NCBI GenBank assembly: GCA_045606105.1
Contig: JAZURI010000009.1
Location: 157 to 64,156 of the forward strand
Direction: 5' to 3'
From: Spirochaetia bacterium
GTDB taxonomy: Bacteria > Spirochaetota > Spirochaetia > CADAEX01
Length of the DNA stretch: 64,000 bases
A program made the translations under genes and the position numbers. Below the pieces are notes generated by a model. That model was not told where the DNA came from. It ran no database searches and saw nothing but the letters and a program-made list of their open reading frames with translations. Each line of letters starts with the position of its first letter. Within the stretch, counting starts at the first letter, position 1. Shown piece by piece: positions 8,048 through 29,500 of the stretch.

Positions 8048-9025
8048 ATGGAGTACAGGAATCCTGAGGTTGCCGCAAGGGTGGCCGAGGCTCACGGAAT
8101 CACTGAAAAGATTTTCGGAAACAAGGTATATATCAGAGGAATCATAGAATTCTCCAACTATTGCCGCAAGAACTGCAATTACTGCGGTATCAGACGGGAA
8201 AACCTGGATGTGAAGCGCTACAGGATGAGTGCGGACGAGATTGTGGAGGCCGCTGAAAGGAACCTGAAGCAGGGAATCAGGACCATTGTCCTGCAGTCTG
8301 GGGAGGACATGAGCTATTCCAGAGCCGATATGGTGGATATCATACAGCGCATCAAGGCAATAGATCCGGAATGTGCCATAACCCTGTCGATCGGAGAGAG
8401 ATCCCGTGAGGATTATGCAGCCTTCAAGGAGGCGGGAGCAGACCGTTTTCTCATGCGCTTCGAGACAGCGGACCGGGAGCTTTTTGCATCTCTTCATCCC
8501 GATGATGATTTTGATGTGAGACTTGAGGCACTCAGGAACCTGAAGGAGCTGGGTTACGAGACCGGCTCGGGCTTCATGATAGGGATTCCCGGAGAAAAAG
8601 AGGATGCGGACGACAGGAATATCGAGCTCCTGAAGGAAATAGGGGTTCATATGGTGGGATGCGGCCCTTTTATACCGGCAGCCGGCACCCCTATGGAGAA
8701 CGACGGAATACATGCGGATATGGAACGGTGCATGGATGTGTATGCCAAGGTAAGGCTTGCCCTGCCGGATGCAAACATTGCGGCGGCCACAGCGCTGGAT
8801 GCACTGGAGAAGGGGGCTCGGAAGATTTCCCTTTCCGTGGCAGCCAATGTAGTGATGCCCAACACCACTCCTATAAAATACAGAGATGACTATTCAATCT
8901 ACAGAAGAAAGGGAAAGCTGGACGAGAACCTGGCAGATGCCCATTATCTGGGACAGGAGCTGGAGAAGCTGGGATTTACCCCGATGTGGAACGTAAAAGG
9001 AAATTCAAGACTTAAAGGAGAATAA
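8048..9025 (+). CDS. hydE: Radical SAM protein, HydE-like ([FeFe]-hydrogenase maturase) / BioB family
   Basis: FSNYCRKNCNYCGIRREN contains the CxxxCxxC cluster motif in the context typical of HydE. Length 325 aa, with a TIM-barrel-like continuation. Confidence 0.55.
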   Translation: MEYRNPEVAARVAEAHGITEKIFGNKVYIRGIIEFSNYCRKNCNYCGIRRENLDVKRYRMSADEIVEAAERNLKQGIRTIVLQSGEDMSYSRADMVDIIQRIKAIDPECAITLSIGERSREDYAAFKEAGADRFLMRFETADRELFASLHPDDDFDVRLEALRNLKELGYETGSGFMIGIPGEKEDADDRNIELLKEIGVHMVGCGPFIPAAGTPMENDGIHADMERCMDVYAKVRLALPDANIAAATALDALEKGARKISLSVAANVVMPNTTPIKYRDDYSIYRRKGKLDENLADAHYLGQELEKLGFTPMWNVKGNSRLKGE

Positions 9026-9488: not shown

Positions 9489-10127
9489 TTACCACATTAC
9501 ATTCCTTTTGTGTTGTAAAAGATCAATCGCTTCCATTAACTTTCCGTATGCAGGATGCTTGTCCGTTATTTTTTTACATAGCCCACGCATATTTAACAGC
9601 AAATAATCAAGTCTATGTGATTGATTTCCTAAGTCAACCTTGTCATAAAATTCCTTGATGCTATTGTCGCCATTTTTTGCTTGATTGATTCTTATATAGT
9701 AATTCTCATCTCTAATGAAAGCCTCGGTTATCTCTGTCTCATCGGGATGAATTTTGTGAAGATCTTCATCCGGAATTTCTAGCATACTTTTGGCTCTATT
9801 ACAACCATAACAAGACAAAACCAGATTTTCTATGTATCCTGCATTAGCTTTTTTCTTTCCAAAGCGATCAGCTTCTTTGGGGATTAAATGGTCGATTTCA
9901 AACATTTGCCACGGAATAATTTCGGTAGACACCCCGCAATAGGCACATTTACCATTATATGCTTCTACAAATTGTTGTTTAAAAGGTTTATCGTTCCTTG
10001 AGATATATGTATGCATATCTTTTGCCCTAGGATGTTTTTCGCACACTGAATCTTTTACATCGTTTTTCTTTTTTGCCAGATTTGTAAGTGTAGGACAATA
10101 TTTTGAATTTCTATAATCGTCAGCCAT
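9489..10127 (-). CDS. HNH endonuclease domain protein
   Basis: CAYCG...EIDHLIPK...NLVLSCYGCN is a zinc-finger HNH motif. 212 aa. Its start overlaps the stop of the upstream receiver-domain gene (AATGGCTGA). Confidence 0.8.
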   Translation of the reverse strand: MADDYRNSKYCPTLTNLAKKKNDVKDSVCEKHPRAKDMHTYISRNDKPFKQQFVEAYNGKCAYCGVSTEIIPWQMFEIDHLIPKEADRFGKKKANAGYIENLVLSCYGCNRAKSMLEIPDEDLHKIHPDETEITEAFIRDENYYIRINQAKNGDNSIKEFYDKVDLGNQSHRLDYLLLNMRGLCKKITDKHPAYGKLMEAIDLLQHKRNVMW

Positions 10128-10716
10128 TTAAACTCTCCTGTATTTCTTTGAAAGCTAAAATCAAACTGTCAATATCGTCTTTTGTAAGTTTATCGTATGT
10201 ATTTGTACCTTCTAGCGTTGCAATAACCTTATCCTTTAAAACGTCTTCCCACGTATCATTTTTCCTAACCAAATCAGCCAGTAGCCGATATTGTTTAATA
10301 TCAGCTACCGCTTCATTGATGATTTTAGGGAGTTTCGAAGAATAATACTCAGAAGCAGATCCAGCGAGAGATTTATCATATTTTGCTATTTTTCTGATTT
10401 CCGAATCTGTACCATTCTGTGTGATGACAATTACTTCGATGAAAGGAAGCAACTTTTTGAGTATCAGTTTAAACTCTTCGCCGGTAAATTTTACATCGGC
10501 GGCAGTGCGGTTTTCAAAAAGCCACGAGTCAATTAGAATAATATTTGCGTTGCTAACTCTTTGATCAGAAAGTAAACTTTCGTATCCGTCTTCAGGATTA
10601 AATATTATTTCCGAACAAAGAATTTCATAATTATCACTTTTAAATTCTTCATCCAAATATCTAGTTAAAGCCGTTTCAGGATTATCATCAATATATACTA
10701 AAGAATACTTCTCCAT
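10120..10716 (-). CDS. Stand-alone response-regulator receiver (REC) domain protein with a C-terminal helical extension
   Basis: SLVYIDDNPE gives the acidic pair; ANIILIDSWL the phospho-acceptor Asp; IEVIVITQNGT the Thr; a Lys follows downstream. No output domain is recognisable. Confidence 0.6.
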   Translation of the reverse strand: MEKYSLVYIDDNPETALTRYLDEEFKSDNYEILCSEIIFNPEDGYESLLSDQRVSNANIILIDSWLFENRTAADVKFTGEEFKLILKKLLPFIEVIVITQNGTDSEIRKIAKYDKSLAGSASEYYSSKLPKIINEAVADIKQYRLLADLVRKNDTWEDVLKDKVIATLEGTNTYDKLTKDDIDSLILAFKEIQESLNG

Positions 10717-12857
10717 TATTTTGATCCTCCAATGGTAAATTCGATATGAAAACCGTTATTACCATCTATTTTAGTAATTTCACCGCTAGACATTGTAACA
10801 GTATTATTTACTATCCACATGCCAAGACCGTGTCCTTTTTTGCGTGTAGTCTCATGAACTTCTAGTATCTTTTCGGGATTTTTTAAATACTTTTTATCCA
10901 ACCCTTTTCCACTATCAGCATAAGAGAACAACAGTACACTTCCAGAGAGGGTTACACCAATTGTTATATCCAAATGATTAAGGCTTTCATTTTGCTGTAT
11001 GCTGTTGAGGATTAGATTATCAAAAATCACTTGCAAATAATCTTCCGATATCATAAAGCAAAGATTATCATCCATATTGATTGTGATACTGATCCAAGCA
11101 TAGTCATTTTCCCAGTTCTTTTTAATTCGCTGAATAATATCATTAATGCTTTGCCAAGAAGGTTCAAATTGTTTCTTTTCTATTTCTGAAAGCATTGTAT
11201 TCATAAAAGCCAACAATTTCGAGCTTACTTGTTTATTTGTTTCTAAAAGATAAGGCACATTTTGATAAGACTTTTCGGTATACTCTGGTGAAGTTAGTTC
11301 ATCCCACATATCAAATTTCTTCAATGCGGCAACAATATTATCAATATTGTCAGCAACCGAATTTCTATCATTTCTCATTTCGTGTGCAATTGATGATGCT
11401 TTCAACCCAACGGTTGCTAACACATTTAGGATTCGAACATCATATTTGTATCTCGTTTCTACATCATCACGCTCACGTTGTGCTTCTGTATGCGCTTTTT
11501 GATACGCCTTGATTTCAGCCGCCAACAACATAGTTTCCTCTTTGGATAAATTAGCCACTGAACTGGGATTAGATACGATTTTTTCACTAACAGGTGCTTG
11601 CTTTTCTTCAACAGGGGCGTTCTTAACATTTATGTGACGAATAATATTTTGACGATATCTTTCAAAACCTTTTATGCCGGAAAGCACGATTTCAACAAAC
11701 AATTCATAAAAAATATTTTCGTCTAAGCCCTGTCTGTTTGAAAGATCCTGCAATACACCGTTACGCTGTTTATCAATTTCCACTTTGCCTGCCATTTGGT
11801 TTTCTCTTACACGCCAAGAACCCGTTGGGTGTGTTGCAGCAGCAGGAGATTTTCTGGAACGTTTTCCAAAACCAAGCCAGTCTTTTTTACCTTCGTAGGA
11901 AGATATACTAAAGGCATTTCGATAAAGAATAACACCCTTTAGCGCCTCACTTGGTAAAGTGTAATGTTTATATAAGAATTTTTCGACATCAGCTTTGGTA
12001 GGGCTAATTGTGAAAGAAAATTCCGCAGAAAAATCGCCTAGTTGTAGCAAATTGTTTTTGAGTTCATTTTCAGATAATTCCCATTGATCATTCGCTTTAA
12101 GTTCATCGAAAATATCAATTGTCTGAAAATAATACTTCAAATCAATGTCTTTACAATACTTTTCTGCTGCATCTAAAAACTCATCCGAAACAACCTCGGT
12201 AGTTAAAGTGTGCGTAGTGCTATCATATTTCAAGTTGATTTTTGCCAAACAATTAATGCCGGGAATCAGCTCCGTGATATATGATGTGATCTCCGTATTG
12301 ATATCTGGATGCGATACAATAATCCTCATAACATTATCGTTATAGGTTTTAGATAGGAACAAAACGAGATTTTCAATTTTCTTTTTATTCCACTTGATTC
12401 TAAGATTCTTTATAATAATTTTTGTGCCTTGTTCAGTGATAGTTTCATCAATAGCTACTGTAGAAGTATTCCAATCGGTTTCCCATACGACACCGGGGAA
12501 CCCATCTTTTTGGGAAAATACAGAAGTGGCTTCACCAAGTCTTGCTAAAGCAAAACGTCCAACACCCTTGGAACCAGCCAAAACTCTAATTTGATTGTTT
12601 TCTAAAACGGTACTATATTTTTTTGGACTCTTGCCAACATGCATCCAGTTTGTCTTAATATCATTGATATTCATTCCTGTTCCATCATCGATTACTGTAA
12701 GAATGTCATTTTCGAAGATTAACTTTACAAAAGAGGCACTTGCGTCATATGCATTTTTCACCAGTTCAAGAATTGCGGATTCGTCAGTAGAAAAGTTTTG
12801 TTTACCCAATAATTCGGAAATGGTTTTATCCTCAATTACATATTGTAGTTTTTCCAT
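10716..12857 (-). CDS. Histidine kinase with an additional N-terminal GHKL (HATPase_c_3/MORC-MutL-like) ATPase domain
   Basis: N-terminal ELVKNAYDA, IDDGTGM and GSKGVGRFA boxes. Central ASSIAHEMRNDRNS H-box. C-terminal IFDNLILNSIQQN (N-box), YADSGKGLD (G1) and KKGHGLGMWIV (G2). Confidence 0.7.
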   Translation of the reverse strand: MEKLQYVIEDKTISELLGKQNFSTDESAILELVKNAYDASASFVKLIFENDILTVIDDGTGMNINDIKTNWMHVGKSPKKYSTVLENNQIRVLAGSKGVGRFALARLGEATSVFSQKDGFPGVVWETDWNTSTVAIDETITEQGTKIIIKNLRIKWNKKKIENLVLFLSKTYNDNVMRIIVSHPDINTEITSYITELIPGINCLAKINLKYDSTTHTLTTEVVSDEFLDAAEKYCKDIDLKYYFQTIDIFDELKANDQWELSENELKNNLLQLGDFSAEFSFTISPTKADVEKFLYKHYTLPSEALKGVILYRNAFSISSYEGKKDWLGFGKRSRKSPAAATHPTGSWRVRENQMAGKVEIDKQRNGVLQDLSNRQGLDENIFYELFVEIVLSGIKGFERYRQNIIRHINVKNAPVEEKQAPVSEKIVSNPSSVANLSKEETMLLAAEIKAYQKAHTEAQRERDDVETRYKYDVRILNVLATVGLKASSIAHEMRNDRNSVADNIDNIVAALKKFDMWDELTSPEYTEKSYQNVPYLLETNKQVSSKLLAFMNTMLSEIEKKQFEPSWQSINDIIQRIKKNWENDYAWISITINMDDNLCFMISEDYLQVIFDNLILNSIQQNESLNHLDITIGVTLSGSVLLFSYADSGKGLDKKYLKNPEKILEVHETTRKKGHGLGMWIVNNTVTMSSGEITKIDGNNGFHIEFTIGGSK

Positions 12858-12858
12858 T

Positions 12859-14286
12859 TCATTGCCCTCCTATAAAAAGATAGTTATTGATATCTTTACA
12901 AGTTACTCGTAATGATTTACCGCTAATGTTTATGCCTATATTTTGGACATACCGTAAAAATTGCTCGCTTTTAAGTATTTCAACAGCATCGTTTAGATTA
13001 TAAGCAGGGTTTTTCACGGTAATATATATTCCTGAAAAAGGAATCGTATTGGCATCCACTTCATAAACTTCGACTGTATTTGTGATTATTGTAGAAATAA
13101 GAAGTTTTTCCTTATTTAAGTGTGCCAAGGCTTGTGATCTGCCGTACTCAAACCAAGTTGCTTTTTCATCACTATTTCTTGCGTCAAGTTCTTTAGAGTA
13201 CTGTCTTAAATGTTTTGCCGTATTCGGAAAAAGCTCTTCGAAGGTTTCTTCGGAGTATCGGCACAGTCCCTTATCATCATAGAAATAAGGGAAAATTATT
13301 TTTTTCTTTTTCTTATATCTTAGAGTATTGGGACTCACTGCATCCCTCAAGATATTTTGTTCCAAGTTCTCTTCACCAATGCACGCATCATCCACTATAA
13401 ATGCCTTATTATAAAGGGTTGCGATAGTTATTGAGGCGTGAAAAATATCGCCAAACCTAAGCATTTTCTGAGTGTTGTTGTTAGGAATTGAAAACATCCA
13501 TTTGTCACCAAGAGAGTGACGACAAAGACTTCTTTTTGTGCCTTCAGTAACGTTTTCATAGTGTATGTTTTCATTTGAGTTTTCTTTGTCGTATAAAAAT
13601 ATGCTTACTGATGTCAAGGTTTTATCGAATAATTTTTGATCCGGATAATCTAGCACAGTAGCAATATGGTCTACAAGAAGTTCCCTTAATTTTTTCGCAA
13701 AAACATTCTTATAAATGTTATTGGGAATTAATTGAACAAGTTTTCCAGTTTCTTTCAGGTGTTTAATGCCCGATTCAATGAAAGCATAACAGTAGTCAAA
13801 TTTTCCGATTGCACACGACTCAAATTTCTTTTTAAGTGATATCCTACTGTCTTCGTCCATTTCTTTATAAGAAATGTAAGGAGGGTTACCAATAATATAA
13901 TCGAAAGAAATGTTAAGGTTTATAGACAATGCGTTATCATTGAAAAGCTTCCAGTCTACAGAAGGAATGTTATAGGATTCGAGTATGGCATTTAATTCTA
14001 AAATACAGTTATCGTAAAGAGTTTTATCCAATTCAATCCCATATACATCTTGAGCTAATCCTGCTGAAATAGATACTAAATCAACACCTGCTGCGATAGC
14101 GCTTTCTATATATCTAACAACAATTGCTTTTAGAATGTTACCTGAACCAAATGAGTTCTCTAATATAGTTTTTCCCATAAGGTCTGTGTTATAATTCACA
14201 AGATTCAACATTGTATCTACCAACGCTGAAGGTGTGAATTTTTGGCACTTGGTTTTATTTTTGCCGATTTCTAATATAGAACTCAT
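12859..14286 (-). CDS. N6-adenine DNA methyltransferase (type II, gamma-class)
   Basis: FTP...ENSFGSGNIL (SAM-binding motif I) and IIGNPPY (motif IV). 475 aa. Confidence 0.8.
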   Translation of the reverse strand: MSSILEIGKNKTKCQKFTPSALVDTMLNLVNYNTDLMGKTILENSFGSGNILKAIVVRYIESAIAAGVDLVSISAGLAQDVYGIELDKTLYDNCILELNAILESYNIPSVDWKLFNDNALSINLNISFDYIIGNPPYISYKEMDEDSRISLKKKFESCAIGKFDYCYAFIESGIKHLKETGKLVQLIPNNIYKNVFAKKLRELLVDHIATVLDYPDQKLFDKTLTSVSIFLYDKENSNENIHYENVTEGTKRSLCRHSLGDKWMFSIPNNNTQKMLRFGDIFHASITIATLYNKAFIVDDACIGEENLEQNILRDAVSPNTLRYKKKKKIIFPYFYDDKGLCRYSEETFEELFPNTAKHLRQYSKELDARNSDEKATWFEYGRSQALAHLNKEKLLISTIITNTVEVYEVDANTIPFSGIYITVKNPAYNLNDAVEILKSEQFLRYVQNIGINISGKSLRVTCKDINNYLFIGGQ

Positions 14287-14311
14287 TTTATCACCATTTA
14301 TTACTTAAAAT

Positions 14312-15319
14312 TTATTTCCACAGATCGTCCAAGTTTTTCGCCTTTGAAATTAGTTCATAAGATGAATATCTTGGCGCCTGCGGAGCTTGGCCTTTCTTCT
14401 TTCCAAGACCAATTTTATTGATTTCTACCGTTGTGTTTGGCTTGAAATAGAGAATGTATTTGTTAGTATCTTTATACTTATCAATGCGCTCAACTTCGGC
14501 TATATGAGTAATGCCTGAAACCGGTGCAACTTGATATGCGGCAATGTACTTGATTTTATCAAGCATTGCTCCGGAAATGCGAACGGCATACCAACGATTG
14601 TTCTTCAAGAACTCTTCGTTAAAACCATCTTCACGAGCGGGTACGACAATAGTATTCAACTCATCAGCATCCTCAACGACAGGAAGATCGGTGAGAACAG
14701 CATCGTTAAAAGGCGTAAACCTATGCAGCTTTTTATCCCCACATATGTATGTCTGTGCTTCAATAACGTCTGTTGCCATTGTAAGCTGCCCCAATACATT
14801 GTAGAGTTCTTCTGTCGCTTCGTCGATAATAATGATTGCTGAAGGTTTATTCTCAAAAATTACTTTATCCAGTAACTCGTTAATATTGTCGTATTTGGAT
14901 TGCTTGAAAAATTCTTTTAGCGTTGCTTTTTTAGCCGCATCTTTATTTATTGCTTCAAGTAATAGGTTCTTCATTTTATATTTATCTGTTTCTGAAGAAA
15001 TACCAAAACGAAGAATCTGTTCACCGATATGTCCGTAAACATCGTGGCTTTGAAGTTCTACTTCTACAAGATATAAACGAGGATCATTATGGAAAGTCAA
15101 ATCAAGATAATATCCGTCAGGTATGGCTGCACCTTTTTTAGGCTTGCCAATCAATTTCTTCATAGCAAAATAGATGCCATTTCCTCCAAATATGGCTTCG
15201 GAGTTATCAATAATCATAGATTCGAATTCCGACTCGCCGTCATATTTATACAGTGTGTATGTAGTACCGTTTTCATCTATAATCTTGTACATAGATATTT
15301 TCCCTTTACTATACATCAA
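14312..15319 (-). CDS. Hypothetical protein, possible cognate restriction endonuclease of the adjacent methyltransferase
   Basis: 335-aa AT-rich ORF 25 bp downstream of the methyltransferase on the same strand. No confident catalytic motif; contains IPDGYYLD...VEVELQ. Confidence 0.3.
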   Translation of the reverse strand: MMYSKGKISMYKIIDENGTTYTLYKYDGESEFESMIIDNSEAIFGGNGIYFAMKKLIGKPKKGAAIPDGYYLDLTFHNDPRLYLVEVELQSHDVYGHIGEQILRFGISSETDKYKMKNLLLEAINKDAAKKATLKEFFKQSKYDNINELLDKVIFENKPSAIIIIDEATEELYNVLGQLTMATDVIEAQTYICGDKKLHRFTPFNDAVLTDLPVVEDADELNTIVVPAREDGFNEEFLKNNRWYAVRISGAMLDKIKYIAAYQVAPVSGITHIAEVERIDKYKDTNKYILYFKPNTTVEINKIGLGKKKGQAPQAPRYSSYELISKAKNLDDLWK

Positions 15320-15367
15320 ACTAAAAGTTTTGACAAAAGTTTGATATTATTTACCTTAATGGCAGTT

Positions 15368-15526
15368 TTATATCAATATATTATGTTGCATCTCTCTGTG
15401 CATAGGTTTCACTTCAGTAAACTCCTGAAATTCGTTAAGTAACCCTTTGAAAATAGTTAATATTCCAACCAAGACAACTGTGCCACCACCAACTGCAGTA
15501 AGCAGATGTTCCAACCACTCAGGCAT
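15368..15526 (-). CDS. Possible 52-aa single-TM micro-protein
   Basis: GGTGGAG RBS then ATG. Translation is MPEWLEHLLTAVGGGTVVLVGILTIFKGLLNEFQEFTEVKPMHREMQHNILI. It is below the ORF-track length cut-off and sits within an operon context. Confidence 0.3.
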   Translation of the reverse strand: MPEWLEHLLTAVGGGTVVLVGILTIFKGLLNEFQEFTEVKPMHREMQHNILI

Positions 15527-15593
15527 AATCTCCACCTCATTTCAACCTTTCACATAGCGGCAGGATTTCTTCTAGTTTGGTAAAGAAATAAAC

Positions 15594-16514
15594 TTATACC
15601 AAATGTTTCGGGACATCTGATGCAGAACTCATAATTTTTTCTTTTTCTGCATTGCGAATTCTGTCCGCCATTTTCTGAATTTTACTTGTTATCCACATAT
15701 GAGCGGTAGTTCCTTCAGAATAGTCTGCTTCTGCATACATATCTACACGACCGTCTGCTCGCATTTGCTCCACTTGTTGCATGGCATCTTTGTCACCTTT
15801 GGGATATATTGCAAAAGTAGCTCCACCATTTTGCTTAACCACGGAAAAAGCAGGAATATCACTGGGACCGTCTGCAATATAAATCATATTTTTAAAATGA
15901 ACTCGTCTATATTCTTCAGGTATTTTAGAATTAACTTCGATTCCATCAAGTTTTTCGATGCCTTTATTGATTTCAAATAAAGCTCGAGTTTTTGTAGTGT
16001 TATCAATTGTATATAGAATCTCGCTTATAATTAGATTTCCATTTTCGTCTGGAGCGTCCAGCAACTCACACCCCCAGATGCCATCTACGTATGGCTTTAA
16101 AACAGAACCACGGATAATCTCAGCAAAACCAGTACTTACAATGTAATGTTCTACTTGAATTCCATATTCTGAGTAGCTTTTATCATCTTTGAACATATTT
16201 TTTGTTTGCTCAAAAATTTCAGGAATACCTTTATAGAATTTTTGTTTTGCCCCATACTCATGGAGTTTTTTATTATTCAAACCAGAAAGCGTCCCGTCAT
16301 GAGCACATTTTATAAAATGATTAAGATAGTATGTATCCTTATTTACACGAATTCCTTTTGCTTTATACTCGGATGGAATTAAATCAACTTGTTTCCAAAA
16401 ATCTCCGGATTTAATATTATATTCTTCAAAAATCGGGTCTTGCATATAACCATCAATTAGAGTTTTGTCACAATCCCAAATTACAGCAATAATGTTTGCC
16501 ATATTTTTCCTCAC
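15594..16514 (-). CDS. HAD-superfamily hydrolase-like protein
   Basis: IAVIWDCDKTL supplies motif I (DxDxT) and MIYIADGPSDIP is motif IV-like (DGxxD). 306 aa, embedded between hsdS and the type II pair. Confidence 0.55.
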   Translation of the reverse strand: MRKNMANIIAVIWDCDKTLIDGYMQDPIFEEYNIKSGDFWKQVDLIPSEYKAKGIRVNKDTYYLNHFIKCAHDGTLSGLNNKKLHEYGAKQKFYKGIPEIFEQTKNMFKDDKSYSEYGIQVEHYIVSTGFAEIIRGSVLKPYVDGIWGCELLDAPDENGNLIISEILYTIDNTTKTRALFEINKGIEKLDGIEVNSKIPEEYRRVHFKNMIYIADGPSDIPAFSVVKQNGGATFAIYPKGDKDAMQQVEQMRADGRVDMYAEADYSEGTTAHMWITSKIQKMADRIRNAEKEKIMSSASDVPKHLV

Positions 16515-16518
16515 TTTC

Positions 16519-17913
16519 TTATTTCAATTTTTCACACAGTGGCAAGATTTCTTCCAGTTTGGCAACGATACGATTTTGCTCTGAAACTGGCGGTACGGGA
16601 ACGACTGCTCTATAAAGGCGATCATCATTTATCGCAGGATAGGCTACGCCTTTAGCATTCTCCGTATCATTGGCGTAGTTATCAAAAGAGGGTGATAACA
16701 AGTAATAGAATAAGTATTTATTATTAACACCCTTAAAACAAGTCATTGCAGCAAAGCCCGTACTTGCAATTGGCTCCAAACTGAATTCACGGTCAATGAT
16801 ACACATATTGTGGAGATACGGTCTAACTGTAGAATAAAGAATATCGCCCATTTGAACAATTTTCCTTGCTCGGGAAGGCGCTTTGTTTGCCTCTGTAATA
16901 TTGTCCTCGGGGTTTAGCCTTTGTCGCTTATTATCAATAGAACCTATATCTATATAACAAAATGTCTTGTTCGGTATTTTCTGTCCACGATTGTATACAA
17001 GATCTTGTAACCTTGCCCAAATCCATGTTTCAGGGATATCAAAGGGAACTTCATCTTCGTCAATTGTAGGGTATGATTTTCCTTTTTTTACTTTGCCAGC
17101 TTTTATCATGGCTTGTCTTTTTGTCTGGATCTCCCAGAACAAATCTTCTCCATTACCTTCTTCTGGGAGTTGGGGAACCAGTTTACCCTGAATGGCCATT
17201 TGGAGAATGGATTTCTGCATATCCGCAGGGAACCGTTTGTTGAAGTCCTCCAGCTTGCTCCACGCCTGATCATAGCGGTCGATCAGTGGCAACAATTCCT
17301 CAATTTTTGCCACAATGCGCTTCTGCTCGGCAAGCGGAGCAACAGGAATGGAGATTTCCTTTAGTTTCTTTATACTTACACCACCGATAATTCCAGTCAT
17401 ATTCCCTGAAAATAGCTCTTTGAACAACCAGCTCTGCAGATAGTAATATAGGTACCTATTATCAATGCCCTGAGCGTGAAAACAGCAGAGCTTATTGCCA
17501 AAGCAGACATCCCTATCAAGTATTCCAATCTTACGTCCTGCACTTCCGCCTTCAATACACATCAATACAGCATCTTTATGCGCCACCTTAAATCCTTCGT
17601 TATATGGGATTCTGACGCCATTGTCATAACAGATTTCTTGATTAAAGGTTACATCTTTTGTGGCGATGTAATCATATCCTGTTTCCAGTCCAGCATATTT
17701 TGCTGATTTGACTGTTTCGGCAATGCTATTTCCGGTATACATTTCGCAACATAAGCCTAAAGTTGACCAAACCCAAGTTTCAGGAACATCAAACGGTATT
17801 TCCGACAATTCGATTGTCTTAACTCCTCCAAAATCTTTGGTTTCAACATGTTCACAAAGTTTACCAGTGAATGCGTTACCTAAAATGCTATATTTAAACT
17901 CCTGCGGTGTCAT
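16519..17913 (-). CDS. hsdS: Type I restriction-modification specificity subunit HsdS (two target-recognition domains)
   Basis: Duplicated conserved spacers LAEQKRIVAKIEELLPLIDRY and VSEQNRIVAKLEEILPLCEKL. The stop overlaps the hsdM start. Confidence 0.85.
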   Translation of the reverse strand: MTPQEFKYSILGNAFTGKLCEHVETKDFGGVKTIELSEIPFDVPETWVWSTLGLCCEMYTGNSIAETVKSAKYAGLETGYDYIATKDVTFNQEICYDNGVRIPYNEGFKVAHKDAVLMCIEGGSAGRKIGILDRDVCFGNKLCCFHAQGIDNRYLYYYLQSWLFKELFSGNMTGIIGGVSIKKLKEISIPVAPLAEQKRIVAKIEELLPLIDRYDQAWSKLEDFNKRFPADMQKSILQMAIQGKLVPQLPEEGNGEDLFWEIQTKRQAMIKAGKVKKGKSYPTIDEDEVPFDIPETWIWARLQDLVYNRGQKIPNKTFCYIDIGSIDNKRQRLNPEDNITEANKAPSRARKIVQMGDILYSTVRPYLHNMCIIDREFSLEPIASTGFAAMTCFKGVNNKYLFYYLLSPSFDNYANDTENAKGVAYPAINDDRLYRAVVPVPPVSEQNRIVAKLEEILPLCEKLK

Positions 17914-19430
17914 CTCTGACCACCTCCGAGAATAACGGTGATATCAGCCAATACCCGGTCGATTTCAGCATTTAGAGAGGCACGCTCCTCCTGATAACGC
18001 TGTATTAAATCCATAGGATCAAGAATTTCTTCCTCAATGTGAGGATAGCCGCACTGATCAAGGTTGTAACCCAGTTCTTCGGTGAGTTGTTGTACCGTAA
18101 ACTTCTTAGCCTTGTCAAAACCATCTACTGTGATTTCCTGACGGTTGTTCCACCATTCTACAACAGGTGCAAAATGTTCCAACTTCATAGGCTTGGTCTT
18201 TGAGAAATGCTTATAACCTTCAGGCATATCCATGCGATAAAACCAAGTTTCTTCTGTAGGTTTGGTACGATCAAAGAATAGAATGTTGGTAGTAATCGAG
18301 GTGTAGGGCGCAAAAACACTACCCGGCATACGGATGATGGTATGCAGGTTGAATTCGGACAACAGTTTCTTTTTAATGTTCACCTTGGCGTTATCGGTAC
18401 CGAACAGGAAACCGTCGGGTAGGATAACTGCCACACGACCATTTTTCTTTAATCGGTACATAATTACGGACATAAAGAGGTCAGCGGTTTCGGAGCTTGC
18501 AAGGTCTGCGGGAAAATGATTCTTTACATCCGCCTTTTCGCTACCGCCGTAGGGAGGATTCATAAGGATAATGTCAAACTGATCGTCCACAGTGTAGTCC
18601 AGCACGTCCTTCAACAGTGTGTTGTCGTGGAATACACGAGGAATATCCAGCCCATGCAGCAAAAGGTTGGTGATACAAAGCATATAGGGGAATTGCTTTT
18701 TCTCAATACCGTAAATAGAATTTCCATATTTCTCTGCATCGGCTGTACTGCGTACTTGCTTCTGCAGTTCTTTGAGCCAGCTTGTGATAAAGCCACCGGT
18801 ACCGCATGCGAAGTCCGCCATTGTTTCACCGATCTTTGGTTGAATCATTTGTGCCATAAAGTCAGTTACAGCACGAGGGGTATAGAATTCACCCGCCGAA
18901 CCTGCGCTCTGCAATTCTTTCAAAATAGATTCATAGATCTCACCGAATGCATGGCTTTCCTCATAGTCGGAAAGGTCAAGTTCGTCAATAACGTTGATGA
19001 CCTGACGAAGAAGAACACCGTCTTTCATATACTGATTTGCATCGGCAAAGGTTGTTTGAACAATAGCTTTTTTAATAGGGGTTGATGCATCTACTTTTAC
19101 ACCACCTATCAAAACATTGCCGTTAGAGTCTTTGATATCGTTACCCTTAAGCACAGGAAAAAGAGTGTTATTCACAAAATCAAGCAATCTATCACCGGTC
19201 ATAGCTGAACCGGATTTATCATCAACTGCCCAATTCGCCCAGCGGCATTCTTCAGGAATGATCGATGTATAGCTATCATCATCGAATTCCCAGTCCTGCT
19301 CTTTGGCATCATATACTTTCAAAAAGAGCATCCATGCGATCTGCTCAATACGCTGTGCATCACCATTGATACCTGCGTCATTGCGCATAATGTCACGAAT
19401 TCTTTTTACAAATCCTGATAGATTGCTCAT
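17910..19430 (-). CDS. hsdM: Type I restriction-modification DNA methyltransferase HsdM
   Basis: N6-adenine methyltransferase motifs including ILMNPPYGG, plus an HsdM N-terminal domain. 506 aa. Confidence 0.9.
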   Translation of the reverse strand: MSNLSGFVKRIRDIMRNDAGINGDAQRIEQIAWMLFLKVYDAKEQDWEFDDDSYTSIIPEECRWANWAVDDKSGSAMTGDRLLDFVNNTLFPVLKGNDIKDSNGNVLIGGVKVDASTPIKKAIVQTTFADANQYMKDGVLLRQVINVIDELDLSDYEESHAFGEIYESILKELQSAGSAGEFYTPRAVTDFMAQMIQPKIGETMADFACGTGGFITSWLKELQKQVRSTADAEKYGNSIYGIEKKQFPYMLCITNLLLHGLDIPRVFHDNTLLKDVLDYTVDDQFDIILMNPPYGGSEKADVKNHFPADLASSETADLFMSVIMYRLKKNGRVAVILPDGFLFGTDNAKVNIKKKLLSEFNLHTIIRMPGSVFAPYTSITTNILFFDRTKPTEETWFYRMDMPEGYKHFSKTKPMKLEHFAPVVEWWNNRQEITVDGFDKAKKFTVQQLTEELGYNLDQCGYPHIEEEILDPMDLIQRYQEERASLNAEIDRVLADITVILGGGQR

Positions 19431-19435
19431 ATAAT

Positions 19436-21811
19436 TTAACCTGCCTTATATAATTCTGTTTCAAGTTCTCTGATTGCCGCCAGATAACCCGCCTTGCCAC
19501 CAAAATATGTAGCAATTTTGGAAGGTTTACCGAACTTATTGAAAGGGTCAAGCTGAAGAATTTCGGTCTTTTCAATTTCATAAATACCGGTATTCATATA
19601 CTTGTCAAGCAACGCTTCCAGCACTTCTCTTGCCACGCCGCTATATTTGCTTAAGAAATCACGTTTCTTAACGTTGTTTGCACGTTCACGGCGGGTGAGA
19701 GGCTTCTGGTCATAGGCAACGTGACAAATAAAGTCAAAGTCGTCCACATCGGTCATTCCTTGATCTGCTTTCATTTGCTCAAGGTCGATGCCTTGTTCTT
19801 TCAGCAGTTCTCGAATGACCTCCTTCTTTTCTTCAGACGTCCATTTAAGAATGAAGTTGTCAAGGGATGCAAATTTGCCGAGAATATTGGACTTTGTATA
19901 GTCTACAATACTTTCTTGACGGAGGAGTTTGCCATCCACATCATAAACTTCAACACGTTTGCCGATAATGTGAACATCGCAGCCGTTTTCATCTACGATA
20001 TATTTATCAACTGTTGGAGGAGTAACGGGATCATTACCATTACCGGGTTTCGGAGGTCTTGGCGTCGGTTTATGTTCGGGATCGTAACCGTCTACCATTT
20101 CAATAGGTCCATCCCAATCAGGATCAGAGAACAGTCTTGTTACATTGCGGAAGTCCATAACAACAAAATGACTCTTGCCTTCTTTCTCACGAAGACGGGT
20201 ACCACGACCGATAATCTGCTTGAACTCGGTCATAGAACTGATCATTTCATCAAGAACAATCAGTTTTGTCATTTTACAATCTGCACCGGTGGAAAGTAGT
20301 TTTGAAGTTGTGGCAATAACTGGATATGGTGCAGAAACAGAAATAAAGTAATCAAGTTTACTTTTGCCGTAAGTATCGGAACCCGTAATACGCACAACGT
20401 AATCCGGATTTTCTTTGACCATATCGGCGTTAAGATTATTAAGAGCAATACGCATACGCTCGGCATGATCTTCGGTAGCGCAGAACACAATAGTTTTCTG
20501 CTTTCTGTCAGTACTCTTTAAGTATTCGGTTATTTCTTTGGCAACTTCATAGGTTCGATCTTCTAAAATGATGTTGTAATCAAAATCGCTATTGGTATAG
20601 ATGCGATCTTCGATTTCATTACCAAACTTATCAAGCTGACCTTTACAAGGGCGCCATCCATCCGAAATGTCAGTTTTGATGTTAATAACTTTAAATGGCG
20701 CAAGAAAGCCGTCTTTAATTCCTTCACGCAAACTGTAGGTATATACAGGCTCGCCGAAGTAATCGATGTTGGAAATATACTTGGTTTCCTTCGGTGTTGC
20801 GGTCATACCGATTTGAGTAGCAGAAGAAAAATAGTCAAGGATTTTTCTCCAGTTACTGTCTTTTTTTGCTGAACCTCTGTGGCACTCGTCAACGATAATA
20901 AGATCGAAGAAGTCCTTATTAAAGAGTTTTGCAAATCGTGCAACCGCTTCTTCTCCGTTTCCTTCATCTTCATTTTCCTCATTACCTGCAAGCTGTTGGT
21001 ACAGGGAGAAATAAACTTCGTGAGAAGTGATGGTAACAGGATCGTCTTTGGCAAAGTTGATTTTATGAATTGTTTTTTCAAGCGGAGAAAAGTCCTGCTG
21101 AATAGATTGATCCACGAGAATATTACGGTCGGCTAAATATAACACTTTTCTCTTCACTCCGCTTTTCAGTAAGCGATAAACAATTTGGAAAGCGGTATAG
21201 GTTTTACCGGTACCCGTAGCCATAACCAATAAAAGACGTTCTTGCCCCTTGGCAATAGCTTCTACAGTACGGTTAATAGCGTTGCGCTGATAATATCTGG
21301 GGTCATAGGTATTCTGACTAGAGTAATACGGCTGTCCGATTACTTTCTTTTCATCAGCAGAAAGTCCTTCGCCACCGTTGGATTCGGTTTCCCAACGCTT
21401 AGTGAGTTCATCGACAGTAGGAAATTCATCCATAGACAAGGTGCGTTCCATACCGGTTAAAAGGTCGTGTTCTTGAAAACCATCACCGTTGGAACTATAC
21501 GCAAAAGGAATGTCCTGCATCTTGGCATAGGTGATTGCTTGTTGAAGGCCATAAGAAACAGAATGATTGTTATCCTTGGCTTCAACAATTGCAATAGGTT
21601 TATTATTTGTCAAGTACAATACATAGTCCGTCTTCTTGGGTTTTTCGCGAGTTACAATATTACCTTTAAGATTGATTCTACCATCAGTAATCTTAGTTTC
21701 CATTGTAATACGATCGAGTCCCCATTTTGCTTGGATTGCAGGGGTTATATATTGTAACTTTATGTCTTCTTCAGACATTTCTTTTTTTGAAAAAACAGTA
21801 GCCGATTTCAT
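19436..21811 (-). CDS. hsdR: Type I restriction enzyme R subunit HsdR
   Basis: N-terminal PD-(D/E)xK motif IAIVEAKD. SF2 helicase motifs MATGTGKT and DECHR. 791 aa. Confidence 0.9.
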   Translation of the reverse strand: MKSATVFSKKEMSEEDIKLQYITPAIQAKWGLDRITMETKITDGRINLKGNIVTREKPKKTDYVLYLTNNKPIAIVEAKDNNHSVSYGLQQAITYAKMQDIPFAYSSNGDGFQEHDLLTGMERTLSMDEFPTVDELTKRWETESNGGEGLSADEKKVIGQPYYSSQNTYDPRYYQRNAINRTVEAIAKGQERLLLVMATGTGKTYTAFQIVYRLLKSGVKRKVLYLADRNILVDQSIQQDFSPLEKTIHKINFAKDDPVTITSHEVYFSLYQQLAGNEENEDEGNGEEAVARFAKLFNKDFFDLIIVDECHRGSAKKDSNWRKILDYFSSATQIGMTATPKETKYISNIDYFGEPVYTYSLREGIKDGFLAPFKVINIKTDISDGWRPCKGQLDKFGNEIEDRIYTNSDFDYNIILEDRTYEVAKEITEYLKSTDRKQKTIVFCATEDHAERMRIALNNLNADMVKENPDYVVRITGSDTYGKSKLDYFISVSAPYPVIATTSKLLSTGADCKMTKLIVLDEMISSMTEFKQIIGRGTRLREKEGKSHFVVMDFRNVTRLFSDPDWDGPIEMVDGYDPEHKPTPRPPKPGNGNDPVTPPTVDKYIVDENGCDVHIIGKRVEVYDVDGKLLRQESIVDYTKSNILGKFASLDNFILKWTSEEKKEVIRELLKEQGIDLEQMKADQGMTDVDDFDFICHVAYDQKPLTRRERANNVKKRDFLSKYSGVAREVLEALLDKYMNTGIYEIEKTEILQLDPFNKFGKPSKIATYFGGKAGYLAAIRELETELYKAG

Positions 21812-21923
21812 TTATCCTTATTATCCCTTTTCTATCTTATCATATAAAAATAATATTTCAATATTTTTATCTTGAAGCAAAGTACCGGATTTCTTCTGTG
21901 AATTAGAAGAAAAGGGAATTCTT

Positions 21924-23261
21924 ATGGACGATTTATTCTATTTGCGTTTTAGGAACTGTAATGGTATACTTAATAAAAGTATGTGTTCTGGAACTATAAA
22001 AATAAAGATAAGAAATTTTGGTCCGGTGAAAGGTGGGCTGACTGAAAATGACGGTTTTATGGATATCTTCCCGGTTACGGTATTCTGCGGAGAGCAGGCT
22101 ACAGGAAAAAGTACAGTAGCCAAGATATATTCCATAATGTCCTGGATCGAGAAGACACTTGTCAAAAACGATATCAAGGATAGCTTTTCCGAGAAACAGG
22201 ATATTGTTACAGTAAATTATAATTTTTTTCTTGATTGCTGCCATTGGCAGAAGATTCATGAGTATTTTTCCCCGGATACATTGATTCAATACGAGGGAAC
22301 TGCTTACCGTATTAAATATGAAAACAAAGATTTTTTTTATGAAAGGGCAGAGACTTATTCTAATTATATCAGACCTAAAATAATGTATGTCCCTGCGGAG
22401 CGAAATCTTCTTGCAGCTCTGGAAGAGGCTGAAAAAATGAAGTATCTTCCAGAAATTCTCTCTTACTTGTTTGATGAATACAGTTTGGCTAGAAAGAAAA
22501 TTGATGTCTGTAGGTTGCCTGTTTCCGATATTATGCTTGTGAATGACAAGGTAAGAAACATTCTTCGTGTTGTCGTTGACAAAAATAGGTCAATTCCTAT
22601 ATGGAATGCATCAAGCGGCATTCAGTCTGTAGCTCCGTTATCTCTTGTAACAAGGCATATTTCCTATGAAATCTTTTCAAAGAAGGAAGGAAAAAATTTT
22701 CGCAATCTATCACTGAATGAAAGAGAACAGTTGAAACAGAAATTTTATGAAGAAATGAATATATGTGTTCCGGAGGAATTAAAAGCTTCCTGGGAAGAAT
22801 TCTCCCATCGTATGTTTCAAAGGTGGTATAGTGACATAAGGAATCTCTTCAACGAATGTTTCATTAATATTGTGGAGGAGCCAGAACAGAACCTTTATCC
22901 TGAATCTCAGGGAAAAGTTCTTTATGAACTGCTTGAATTCATGAATCTGAACCAAAATAACAAGCTAGTCATCACAACCCATAGTCCGTATATACTATCT
23001 TGTTTGACTTTGTGTGCAAAGGCATATGAACTTTTGAAAAAAGGGGTGTCTGATGACAAGATAGACAGGATTATTCCTTCTGTCGCAGCTGTTCCTGGAA
23101 ATAAAATTGCAATATACGAAAATGGTGAAGACGGGGTTCTAAAACGCCTGCAGCATTTTGATAATCTTCCATCAGACAATAACCTTTTAAACAATGCTCT
23201 TAATGAAACAAATGAAATCTTTGCTAGTCTGATAGAGCTGGAAGAAGATAATGGCAGATAG
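21924..23261 (+). CDS. AAA15/ABC-type (OLD-like) ATPase
   Basis: GEQATGKST (Walker A), IVEEPEQNLYPE (Walker B/D-loop) and ITTHSP (H-loop). 445 aa. Divergent from hsdR. Confidence 0.7.
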   Translation: MDDLFYLRFRNCNGILNKSMCSGTIKIKIRNFGPVKGGLTENDGFMDIFPVTVFCGEQATGKSTVAKIYSIMSWIEKTLVKNDIKDSFSEKQDIVTVNYNFFLDCCHWQKIHEYFSPDTLIQYEGTAYRIKYENKDFFYERAETYSNYIRPKIMYVPAERNLLAALEEAEKMKYLPEILSYLFDEYSLARKKIDVCRLPVSDIMLVNDKVRNILRVVVDKNRSIPIWNASSGIQSVAPLSLVTRHISYEIFSKKEGKNFRNLSLNEREQLKQKFYEEMNICVPEELKASWEEFSHRMFQRWYSDIRNLFNECFINIVEEPEQNLYPESQGKVLYELLEFMNLNQNNKLVITTHSPYILSCLTLCAKAYELLKKGVSDDKIDRIIPSVAAVPGNKIAIYENGEDGVLKRLQHFDNLPSDNNLLNNALNETNEIFASLIELEEDNGR

Positions 23262-23733
23262 AATTGATTTTTTCAGATATTGTGAAATTTCCGTTTGTTC
23301 AAAAAATCGTTTCGGTCTCTGTGATCCCCGGACACAGACTCCGGCCTATATTGATTTCTACAATTTCGATAGCTGGATTGCAGTTGTGGAAAACGATCTT
23401 GAAAAAGAAATTGGATTTCTTGCTGTTGACCATAATGTTCCTTTTCCCGTGGATAAGAAAAGATGTGATGCCCTCCTTTTTGATAAAGAGATGCTGTTGT
23501 TCGTGGAACTAAAAAAACAGAGAGGAAGCTGGCTTCCTGAAGCTTTAGTTCAGCTGACGGATACAGTGGAGTTCTTTAAGGAGAATCATGATGTGTCAGT
23601 ATATAAAAACCGTAAGGCTTATGCTTGCAATAAGTGTCATCCCAACTTTAATTTCAGTTATAAGGAGTATATGCAGGATTTTCGAAAACGACACGGATTT
23701 ATTTTGAGAATCAGCACAGAAATAAAAATCTGA
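23251..23733 (+). CDS. Small protein with a PD-(D/E)xK-like motif, partner of the AAA15 ATPase
   Basis: Start overlaps the ATPase stop. VDHN...CDALLFDKEMLLFVELKK gives D...ExK spacing typical of restriction-fold nucleases. 160 aa. Confidence 0.4.
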   Translation: MADRIDFFRYCEISVCSKNRFGLCDPRTQTPAYIDFYNFDSWIAVVENDLEKEIGFLAVDHNVPFPVDKKRCDALLFDKEMLLFVELKKQRGSWLPEALVQLTDTVEFFKENHDVSVYKNRKAYACNKCHPNFNFSYKEYMQDFRKRHGFILRISTEIKI

Positions 23734-23736
23734 TTC

Positions 23737-24351
23737 TTACAGCTCGTCTGCCTTGTAGGTTGTATAGCCTTCGTAAAAATAGCTGTGATCTATTCCTTTC
23801 ATGTAGATTTCCCTGTTGTGGATATCCGGAGTCAGGGCCGCTTTAAGAATATGCTTTATTTCGGTATCCCGGATGGGGCTTCGTTCCATGGCCAACAGAT
23901 AATCTTCCTTGTCTACCTTGCTCCAGTCAACGACTTTTCCTATTTCTTTTTTCAGGATACAGTCAAGCCAGATTCGTGTACTTCTGCCGTTTCCCTCTCT
24001 GAACGGATGTGCCACATTCATTTCCACATATTTTTCTATGATTTCATCAAAATCAGACTGGGGCATTTTTTCAATGTTTTCAATAGCTGCTTCAAGGTAC
24101 ATTACCGGTGCAAATCTGAAATTTCCCTTGGCAATGTTTACTGACCTGAGCTTGCCTGCAAAATCATAGATTTCTTCGAAAAGATATTTGTGAATGGCTT
24201 TGAGAGATGAAAATTTTCCGGCATCAAGTTTATTAAGCATGCCTGTTTCAAACAATTCTACAGCCTTTTTCTTACTGATGCGCTCTTCTTCTCTTGCAAG
24301 CTCTGCCGGCTCCGTAATTCCCAATCTGTTTTCAAGTATCATAGTTTTCAT
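23737..24351 (-). CDS. fic: Fic/Doc family protein (AMPylase-type)
   Basis: HPFREGNGRSTR is the Fic motif HxFx(D/E)GNGRxxR. Start placed at MKTMILENRL; the ORF track's start at 24393 adds 14 unlikely residues. Confidence 0.8.
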   Translation of the reverse strand: MKTMILENRLGITEPAELAREEERISKKKAVELFETGMLNKLDAGKFSSLKAIHKYLFEEIYDFAGKLRSVNIAKGNFRFAPVMYLEAAIENIEKMPQSDFDEIIEKYVEMNVAHPFREGNGRSTRIWLDCILKKEIGKVVDWSKVDKEDYLLAMERSPIRDTEIKHILKAALTPDIHNREIYMKGIDHSYFYEGYTTYKADEL

Positions 24352-24441
24352 ATTGTAACACAGAAACGGGAAGTTGAAAATGAGAAAAAGCAAATCTGAA
24401 ATTTTCTTTCAATCTCCCGGCTAAATTTGAAATAAACCCAT

Positions 24442-29425: not shown

Positions 29426-29498
29426 CGGAATGTGGCCCAGTGGCTAGGGCACCTGCTTTGGGAGCAGGGTATCGTGAGTTCGAGTCTCACCATTCCGA
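29426..29498 (+). tRNA. tRNA-Pro (anticodon UGG)
   Basis: Cloverleaf folded by hand: acceptor CGGAATG/CATTCCG; D-arm GCCC/GGGC; anticodon stem CCTGC/GCAGG with loop TTTGGGA; T-arm GTGAG-TTCGAGT-CTCAC; discriminator A. CCA is not encoded. Confidence 0.85.
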
Positions 29499-29500
29499 CT

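Follow-up and report, generated by a model that had tools for sequence, protein, structure and literature searches.

Within a stretch of 64,000 nucleotides from a Spirochaetia bacterium (GenBank assembly GCA_045606105.1, contig JAZURI010000009.1, positions 157 to 64,156 of the forward strand; hereafter the window), two overlapping genes, which we call A and B, lie beside a type I restriction-modification (RM) operon and are transcribed away from its hsdR gene. A encodes an ABC-type ATPase and B a predicted nuclease, and by profile match the pair is a member of PDC-M29, an already catalogued candidate defence family. We put at roughly 0.68 the probability that A-B is a translationally coupled operon of the anti-phage class in which an ABC ATPase acts as sensor and a separate nuclease as effector.

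The A-B operon and its junction

The positions of the genes and of the other features discussed below are given in Table 1. The hsdR gene starts at 21811 on the minus strand, and the 112 bp that separate it from A presumably carry the A-B promoter. A scan for sigma-70 promoters and terminators around the operon gave nothing above shuffled controls, and no plus-strand promoter was found. A sequence resembling a ribosome-binding site, AAGGGA, lies 8 nt before the A start codon at 21924. The ATG of B (23251) is 8 nt 5' of the TAG of A (23259-23261), giving the 11-nt overlap, and a purine-rich, Shine-Dalgarno-like sequence, GGAAGAAG, is placed just upstream of this ATG, within the 3' end of A. As judged from the sequence, the stop/start junction is one of translational coupling.

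Both are real genes rather than chance open reading frames (ORFs), because each belongs to a large family: A has thousands of homologues, the nearest at 98% identity, and B has 919 representatives at 50% identity. The exact start of A is less clear-cut. M20 (nt 21981) may be the true start, because homologues of 423-425 aa begin at the equivalent of window residue 24 and because residues 1-21 are disordered in an AlphaFold2 (AF2) model (pLDDT, predicted local distance difference test, <50), although it is the upstream ATG that AAGGGA precedes.

A first-pass annotation, made by a model from the letters and a list of ORFs, had described ORFs of 445 and 160 aa that overlap and run divergent from their neighbour, and the coordinates bear this out. 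The motifs that it quoted are also present, namely GEQATGKST, IVEEPE and ITTHSP in A and VDHN, DALLF and VELKK in B.

Table 1. Positions of the features discussed (window coordinates, except for the phage gene in the last row)
Feature	Position	Strand	Basis or remarks
Gene A, stand-alone ABC-type (AAA_15/AAA_21) ATPase, 445 aa	21924..23261	+	PADLOC PDC-M29A
Gene B, predicted PD-(D/E)xK-fold nuclease, 160 aa	23251..23733	+	PADLOC PDC-M29B
Divergent intergenic region hsdR/A, 112 bp	21812..21923	none	ORF coordinates
A/B overlap, 11 nt	23251..23261	+	ATGGCAGATAG; sequence
Three-gene operon, overlapping genes	9489-12857	minus	713-aa, 198-aa and 212-aa proteins
Eco57I-type N6-adenine methyltransferase (475 aa), then 335-aa protein, then 306-aa PDC-S34	12859-16514	minus	
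Class III Fic adenylyltransferase	23737-24393	minus	NmFic equivalog 5.5e-94; PADLOC PDC-S04 4.9e-103
Mic1_13, A homologue of phage Mic1	L088 3995-5233; record 16586-17824		

Both proteins match PDC-M29 over their full length

A matched the PADLOC model PDLC04562 (PDC-M29A) with an E-value of 8.8e-120 and 398.7 bits, residues 26-442 aligning with positions 3-409 of the 410 in the model. B matched PDLC04563 (PDC-M29B) with E 2.8e-49, residues 5-160 aligning with 3-163 of 164, and also a second PDC-M29B model, PDLC04564 (E 1.1e-31). The two genes are adjacent and co-directional, as in PDC-M29. All other PADLOC matches of A were local, falling mainly between Walker B and the H-loop (AriA 2e-16, PtuA 1e-11, GajA 1e-10, HEC-01A 5e-10, AbiLi 2e-7), and at E<=1 the only PADLOC matches of B were to PDC-M29B.

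PDC-M29 is a phage defence candidate (PDC) of PADLOC-DB v2. The PDCs are 145 candidate systems predicted solely from their embedding in other defence operons, a "guilt-by-embedding" defined from the context of type I RM operons, and their curation left out families with non-defence annotations (Payne et al. 2024, bioRxiv 10.1101/2024.01.29.577857). The window pair departs from this picture in two respects, neither of them essential: it is divergent from the RM operon instead of embedded in it, and A can be annotated with an N-terminal extension of 19-23 residues, which is probably not real.

Protein A has the motifs of a complete ABC-type ATPase

In Pfam, A matched AAA_15 (E 1.3e-15, 58.4 bits against a cut-off of 32.1 bits) and AAA_21 (E 2e-10). 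Across homologues, its Walker A motif (GEQATGKST, lysine K62) has invariant G56, Q58, G61 and K62, and a signature-like motif at residues 230-235 (SSGIQS; consensus SSGxQS) has invariant S231, G232, Q234 and S235. The same holds for I316, V317, E318 and E319 of the Walker B motif and D-loop (IVEEPEQNLYP, 316-326) and for T351, T352, H353, S354 and P355 of the H-loop (TTHSPY, 351-356), and a C-terminal LPSDxNxLN motif (415-423) is conserved as well. Going by these motifs, A carries the whole set of an ABC/SMC-type ATPase, predicted to hydrolyse ATP as a head-to-head dimer.

The AF2 model of A (pLDDT 84.4, predicted template-modelling score, pTM, 0.85) was compared with the PDB using Foldseek. 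The best match was PtuA (8eea) of Septu and retron complexes, with E 1.3e-8, probability 1.0, a template-modelling (TM) score of ~0.4 and identity of ~11%; SMC and cohesin heads came next (probability 1.0), and there were 82 matches at E<=1e-3. PDB sequence matches were likewise led by PtuA (2e-5), with an OLD nuclease at 2e-4, and were limited to the C-terminal half of the ATPase, from about the signature motif to Walker B and the H-loop. Neither Pfam, PADLOC nor the model revealed a TOPRIM domain in A, whose C terminus, up to residue 445, is formed by a small alpha/beta region, and a long coiled coil is absent from the model. Variability peaks in a helical insert at about residues 271-300, which has the highest column entropy, indels and low pLDDT. 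We regard this insert as a candidate specificity or sensor element.

Protein B is a predicted, divergent PD-(D/E)xK nuclease

An exhaustive HMMER search yielded the 919 representatives of the B family mentioned above, 528 of them at E<=1e-10. Among the best 150 of the 919, nearly all are 160-175 aa long, and none is fused to another domain. All of 112 diverse members have E86 and Q101, while D60, D73, K88, C72 and N127 are conserved in >=90%. In a second set, the 86 B proteins from the genomic loci described below, the counts were 84/84 for D60, 85/85 each for D/E73, E86 and K88, and 79/83 for Q101. These patterns point to D60, D73, E86, K88 and Q101 as a putative catalytic set, with the motif D-x12-E-x-K plus Q. 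In the AF2 model of B (pLDDT 96.2, pTM 0.91), D73 opens strand 74-77, the strand that pairs with it in a hairpin (81-88) holds E86 and K88, and Q101 is on helix 95-112; as modelled, the layout of the active site is that of a canonical PD-(D/E)xK enzyme.

Three further comparisons, none of them significant by itself, pointed to the same superfamily. The top Foldseek matches of B in the PDB were almost all PD-(D/E)xK nucleases (Cdn1, Nt.BspD6I, EcoT38I, Mus81, Bax1, Hjc, Hef, an arenavirus endonuclease and BstEII). When the 112 members were scanned against Pfam at a permissive threshold, the weak matches that recurred, to NERD (12), SduA_C (5), HSDR_N_2 (5), PDDEXK_9 (4), NucS_C (3), HSDR_N (2), Hjc and AHJR-like, all belonged to the PD-(D/E)xK clan. 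Finally, hhalign of the B family with the nuclease domains found at the N terminus of 11 HsdR proteins placed D73, E86 and K88 in register with HsdR D63, E77 and K79, of which D63 is conserved in >=90% and the other two are invariant in those 11 sequences. Pfam scans of window B and of the 112 members gave no HNH, TOPRIM/DUF4435 or RloB signal, a Foldseek search of the viral structures in BFVD gave nothing significant, and the B profile against PDB sequences gave only a spurious match to eIF3b (E 0.5). We call B a nuclease because these weak similarities converge, and predict that it is a divergent PD-(D/E)xK enzyme without a close solved relative.

The pair resembles several ATPase-nuclease systems and is assigned to none of them

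The closest likeness in design is to HEC-02, which also consists of a stand-alone ABC ATPase and a separate small nuclease of the PD-(D/E)xK superfamily, and which is also found embedded in other defence systems. HEC-02 has been shown by experiment to protect, with both genes needed. Its nuclease is of the NERD type, and NERD was the commonest weak Pfam match of B (12/112 members; best E 0.0064, none above threshold), but HEC-02A is not among the 25 best PADLOC matches of A, and window B matched PDC-M29B alone there. The two appear to be different families. Septu (PtuA-PtuB) and the PtuAB of type I-A retrons are likewise two-gene operons of ATPase and nuclease, and PtuA is the nearest structure to A. 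However, the nuclease PtuB is of the HNH type, in contrast to the PD-(D/E)xK-like B, and A scored only 32.9 bits against the NCBIfam PtuA cut-off of 500, its PADLOC match to PtuA being local; membership of Septu was rejected on the lack of an HNH domain in B (Pfam, PADLOC).

PARIS (AriA-AriB) and AbiL/RloAB share with A-B an AAA_15-type ABC ATPase and a small separate nuclease partner, and RloAB and PrrC-type genes sit inside type I RM operons in the position of embedded PDC-M29 loci. Nevertheless, the AriA match spans only residues 314-358 of A, from Walker B to the H-loop, and AriB and AbiLii/RloB are of the TOPRIM/DUF4435 type, to which B has no similarity. PARIS and AbiL were rejected in Pfam for want of a TOPRIM/DUF4435/RloB-type partner, and the OLD family and Gabija GajA since A has no C-terminal TOPRIM and its GajA matches are local (1e-10). 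PrrC of EcoprrI (hsdM-hsdS-prrC-hsdR) has an ABC-type NTPase and the same place between hsdS and hsdR as several PDC-M29 loci, but it combines NTPase and anticodon-nuclease domain in one polypeptide and is found almost only within RM operons, while PDC-M29 has two proteins and is mostly outside RM operons.

These comparisons also bear on how the first-pass annotation had classified the pair. It had called A 'AAA15/OLD-like', of which the AAA15/ABC ATPase part stands with the Pfam AAA_15 match and the OLD-like part falls, A being a stand-alone ABC ATPase with no TOPRIM. Its suggestion of a PD-(D/E)xK-like core in B agrees with the near-invariant D...ExK residues, the fold neighbours, the weak clan matches and the HsdR register, and it was right that B is neither HNH nor TOPRIM/DUF4435. 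The Foldseek search that it had proposed for the 160-aa protein returned PD-(D/E)xK nucleases at the top, and the PADLOC run gave PDC-M29 for both proteins. The idea of a candidate two-gene defence module is thus upheld by full-length matches to a catalogued candidate, and the accompanying idea of an AbiL-like or unclassified system is not: the AbiLi match is local (2.4e-7), there is no RloB-type partner, and the pair was already in PADLOC-DB.

The fold neighbours of B include restriction and nicking endonucleases (Nt.BspD6I, EcoT38I, BstEII), which would suit a different reading, namely that A-B restricts directly, as an NTP-dependent nuclease of the type IV or McrBC kind that cuts invading, perhaps modified DNA and complements type I restriction as TgvAB and BrxU do. 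PD-(D/E)xK enzymes are mostly DNases, as this reading would have it, and TgvAB, embedded in a type I RM operon, provides a precedent, being a type IV system of two proteins in which both genes are required. Family scans found no recognisable DNA-binding or modification-reader domain in A or B, however, and A is an ABC ATPase while McrB is an AAA+ GTPase; in addition, PtuA, the nearest structural relative of A, belongs to trigger-activated systems. We consider direct restriction unlikely.

A and B travel together across distant phyla

A scan for loci by A alignment, taking one genome per species, found 80 loci that encode a full-length homologue of A, 35-49% identical; with weaker relatives included, the total was 559. 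Represented among the 80 are Spirochaetota, Bacillota, Cyanobacteriota, Bacteroidota, Fibrobacterota, Desulfobacterota, Chlorobiota, Verrucomicrobiota and Pseudomonadota. B lies directly 3' of A on the same strand in 85/88 loci, and of these 85 pairs, 35 overlap by 4 nt and 37 by 10-11 nt. B is missing from three bacterial loci that carry A (L012, L019 and L056). Taxonomically the spread is patchy, the flanking genes are wholly different between lineages, and a Persicobacter plasmid carries a complete pair; this distribution indicates that A-B moves as a cassette among distant phyla.

The lytic Microcystis phage Mic1 (L088, MN013189.1) encodes a full-length A homologue, Mic1_13, at 38% identity (hidden Markov model E 4.9e-150). 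A six-frame search found no B, and the gene that follows, for a Dam methylase, is convergent. Mic1_13 may act as a decoy or an anti-defence protein, or it may be a remnant of capture.

In four Nostocales loci (L016, L018, L019 and L025) a gene for a GNAT acetyltransferase of ~158 aa comes directly after the A-B position, in the same orientation, L019 being one of the loci without B. GNAT families match 5/145 nearest neighbours. The arrangement may reflect lineage-specific synteny or an accessory gene.

A-B is enriched beside type I RM genes but is not bound to them

Among the 145 nearest neighbouring genes, 9-11 encode HsdR, about 5 HsdM and 4 HsdS, and a type I RM gene lies within 10 kb in 14/80 loci. 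By comparison, well under 1% of random 20-kb windows would contain a type I RM gene, on a rough estimate from general knowledge. A-B is strongly enriched beside these genes. Several arrangements occur: hsdM-hsdS-A-B-hsdR (L035, L055, L065, L068 and L081), A-B-hsdR-hsdM...hsdS (L033 and L037), hsdM-hsdS-hsdR-A-B (L076) and A-B-hsdM-hsdS (L023).

The first of these orders is that of the prr locus, and invites the reading that A-B guards type I restriction, remaining silent while the RM system works and firing when an anti-restriction protein (Ocr, Stp or ArdA-like) disables it. Such a guard would mirror PrrC and PARIS, and its target could be tRNA or another RNA in place of DNA. The other orders in which the pair abuts type I RM genes, including the divergent one in the window, fit this reading, as does the fact that anti-restriction proteins often trigger ABC-ATPase defences, EcoprrI holding PrrC inactive. 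Yet 66/80 loci (~83%) have no type I RM within 10 kb, two relatives that are 98% identical to the window keep A-B without the RM operon, and no anticodon-nuclease-like domain was found. The first two of these observations led us to reject the view that A-B needs the type I RM operon as a partner; since A-B is retained where RM is missing, no dependence on a cognate RM complex is required. A guard function is, in our estimation, improbable. A long shot beyond it is that PDC-M29 guards type I restriction, is triggered by phage anti-restriction proteins and employs a PD-(D/E)xK effector of a new structure, and that the Mic1 homologue is a decoy ATPase that titrates or poisons the host A-B; if true, the decoy would be a new anti-defence strategy against ABC-ATPase systems.

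The enrichment beside RM genes also bears on whether A-B serves defence at all. The pair might be a selfish addiction module of the toxin-antitoxin kind, or a repair pair like SbcCD/Rad50-Mre11, that hitchhikes in variable regions. Repair complexes also pair an ABC ATPase with a nuclease, and the Pfam description of AAA_21 mentions an AbiEii/type IV toxin-antitoxin context. Moreover, 'genomic sink' effects can put unrelated genes into defence loci (Payne et al. 2024). The enrichment itself tells against such an origin, as do the patchy spread over phyla, which resembles horizontal gene transfer and lacks conserved housekeeping synteny, and the PADLOC curation, from which families annotated with non-defence functions had been left out. 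Furthermore, A lacks a long coiled coil, and B is no phosphoesterase of the Mre11 type. A non-defence role is very improbable on this evidence.

A model for an ATPase-controlled nuclease effector

Returning to the ATPase sensor with a separate nuclease effector, we infer the defence role of A-B from its genomic context, and think it likely that the effector is a nuclease under the control of the ATPase. With HEC-02, Septu and PARIS as analogues, A and B would assemble into a complex in which A keeps the nuclease of B inactive. A phage-derived cue, sensed through the variable inserts of A such as residues 271-300, would shift its nucleotide state or conformation, whereupon B would be activated or released. 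B would then cut nucleic acid, most likely DNA, and so stop the infection, probably with the loss of the infected cell. This abortive, sequester-then-release version is more tentative, and we would give it somewhat less than even odds.

In favour of an ATPase sensor coupled to a nuclease effector are the invariant ABC motifs of A, the near-invariant active-site residues of B, the 85/88 linkage of the two genes, the setting in a defence island next to RM genes, and the exchange of the genes upstream (see below). Several points weigh against it. No single similarity of B to a nuclease is significant: the Foldseek search of the PDB went no better than E 0.06 (TM ~0.4), every Pfam match among the 112 members was below threshold, and the alignment with HsdR scored low (E 0.0012, probability 20%). 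The RM link is not obligatory, as the 66 loci lacking it demonstrate, and the 992-aa HsdR of the five hsdM-hsdS-A-B-hsdR loci is nearly the same in all of them; one ancestral event may account for all five. The complex, the trigger and the substrate are inferred by analogy only. The PDCs were published as candidates that the original study itself describes as untested (Payne et al. 2024), our literature search found no paper naming PDC-M29, and a cold-seep study that assayed several PDCs did not have PDC-M29 among them.

The window alone would amount to routine annotation of a known candidate family in a defence island. The family is widespread, however, and its effector is a structurally isolated nuclease; what is new here is a concrete model, a B protein with a defined putative catalytic set, and its tight coupling to a complete ABC ATPase. 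Validation would add an effector type to the ABC-ATPase defence superfamily (Septu, PARIS, Gabija, Lamassu, HEC-01 to HEC-04), and the hsdS-A-B-hsdR architecture together with the ATPase-only phage copy offers a way into how backup defences are wired to restriction.

A-B persists in a defence island with turnover

A-B lies at the right edge of a low-GC island of ~15 kb (9489-24393), in which GC is 34-42% against 45-53% in the flanks; the housekeeping genes serA and serC follow on the right. Densely filled with defence genes, the island holds an operon with GHKL and HNH proteins, an Eco57I-type methyltransferase with a 335-aa protein (putative type II RM), PDC-S34, a complete type I RM operon (HsdS, HsdM, HsdR), A-B and Fic. 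None of its ORFs is an integrase or transposase, leaving it without obvious mobility genes.

The metagenomic contigs L090 and L091, the close relatives referred to above, match the window at 98% identity from 21821 to the right, across A, B and Fic and into serA. In blastn, homology breaks off at 21821, that is, in the divergent spacer and 10 nt outside the hsdR start codon, and to the left of this point a 90-aa gene and a gene for a 571-aa PAPS-reductase-family protein replace the type I RM operon. In L092, from a related species with an A that is 55% identical, A-B directly follows a homologue of the radical-SAM gene at 8048-9025 of the window. Relatives thus differ in what lies between the radical-SAM gene and serA, and the interval is therefore a defence hotspot with turnover, of which A-B is the most persistent occupant. 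The 571-aa protein (L090, segment 193-2311) combines Zn-ribbon, PAPS-reductase/DndC-like and 4Fe-4S domains, and is itself a possible defence cassette.

The Fic gene is convergent with B, with 3 nt between the stop codons and no terminator. We considered Fic as a third component and rejected it: it occurs beside A-B only in the near-identical L090 and L091 and in 0/80 other loci, and is therefore probably an independent neighbour.

In the leftmost operon of the island, the 713-aa protein has an N-terminal GHKL ATPase of the MutL/BbrUII type (26-130) and a C-terminal histidine-kinase HATPase_c module (605-697), the 198-aa protein has no family match, and the 212-aa protein is an HNH nuclease, PtuB-like or retron-HNH-like. 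Its domains suggest a defence system in the two-component style, with the HNH protein as effector; PADLOC did not recognise it as a system. The 335-aa protein after the Eco57I-type methyltransferase has no family match and may be the cognate restriction endonuclease. Directly downstream of hsdS, the 306-aa protein matched PADLOC PDC-S34 with E 1.3e-61. Finally, a single tRNA-Pro(TGG) gene is located at 29426-29499, ~5 kb to the right of the island.

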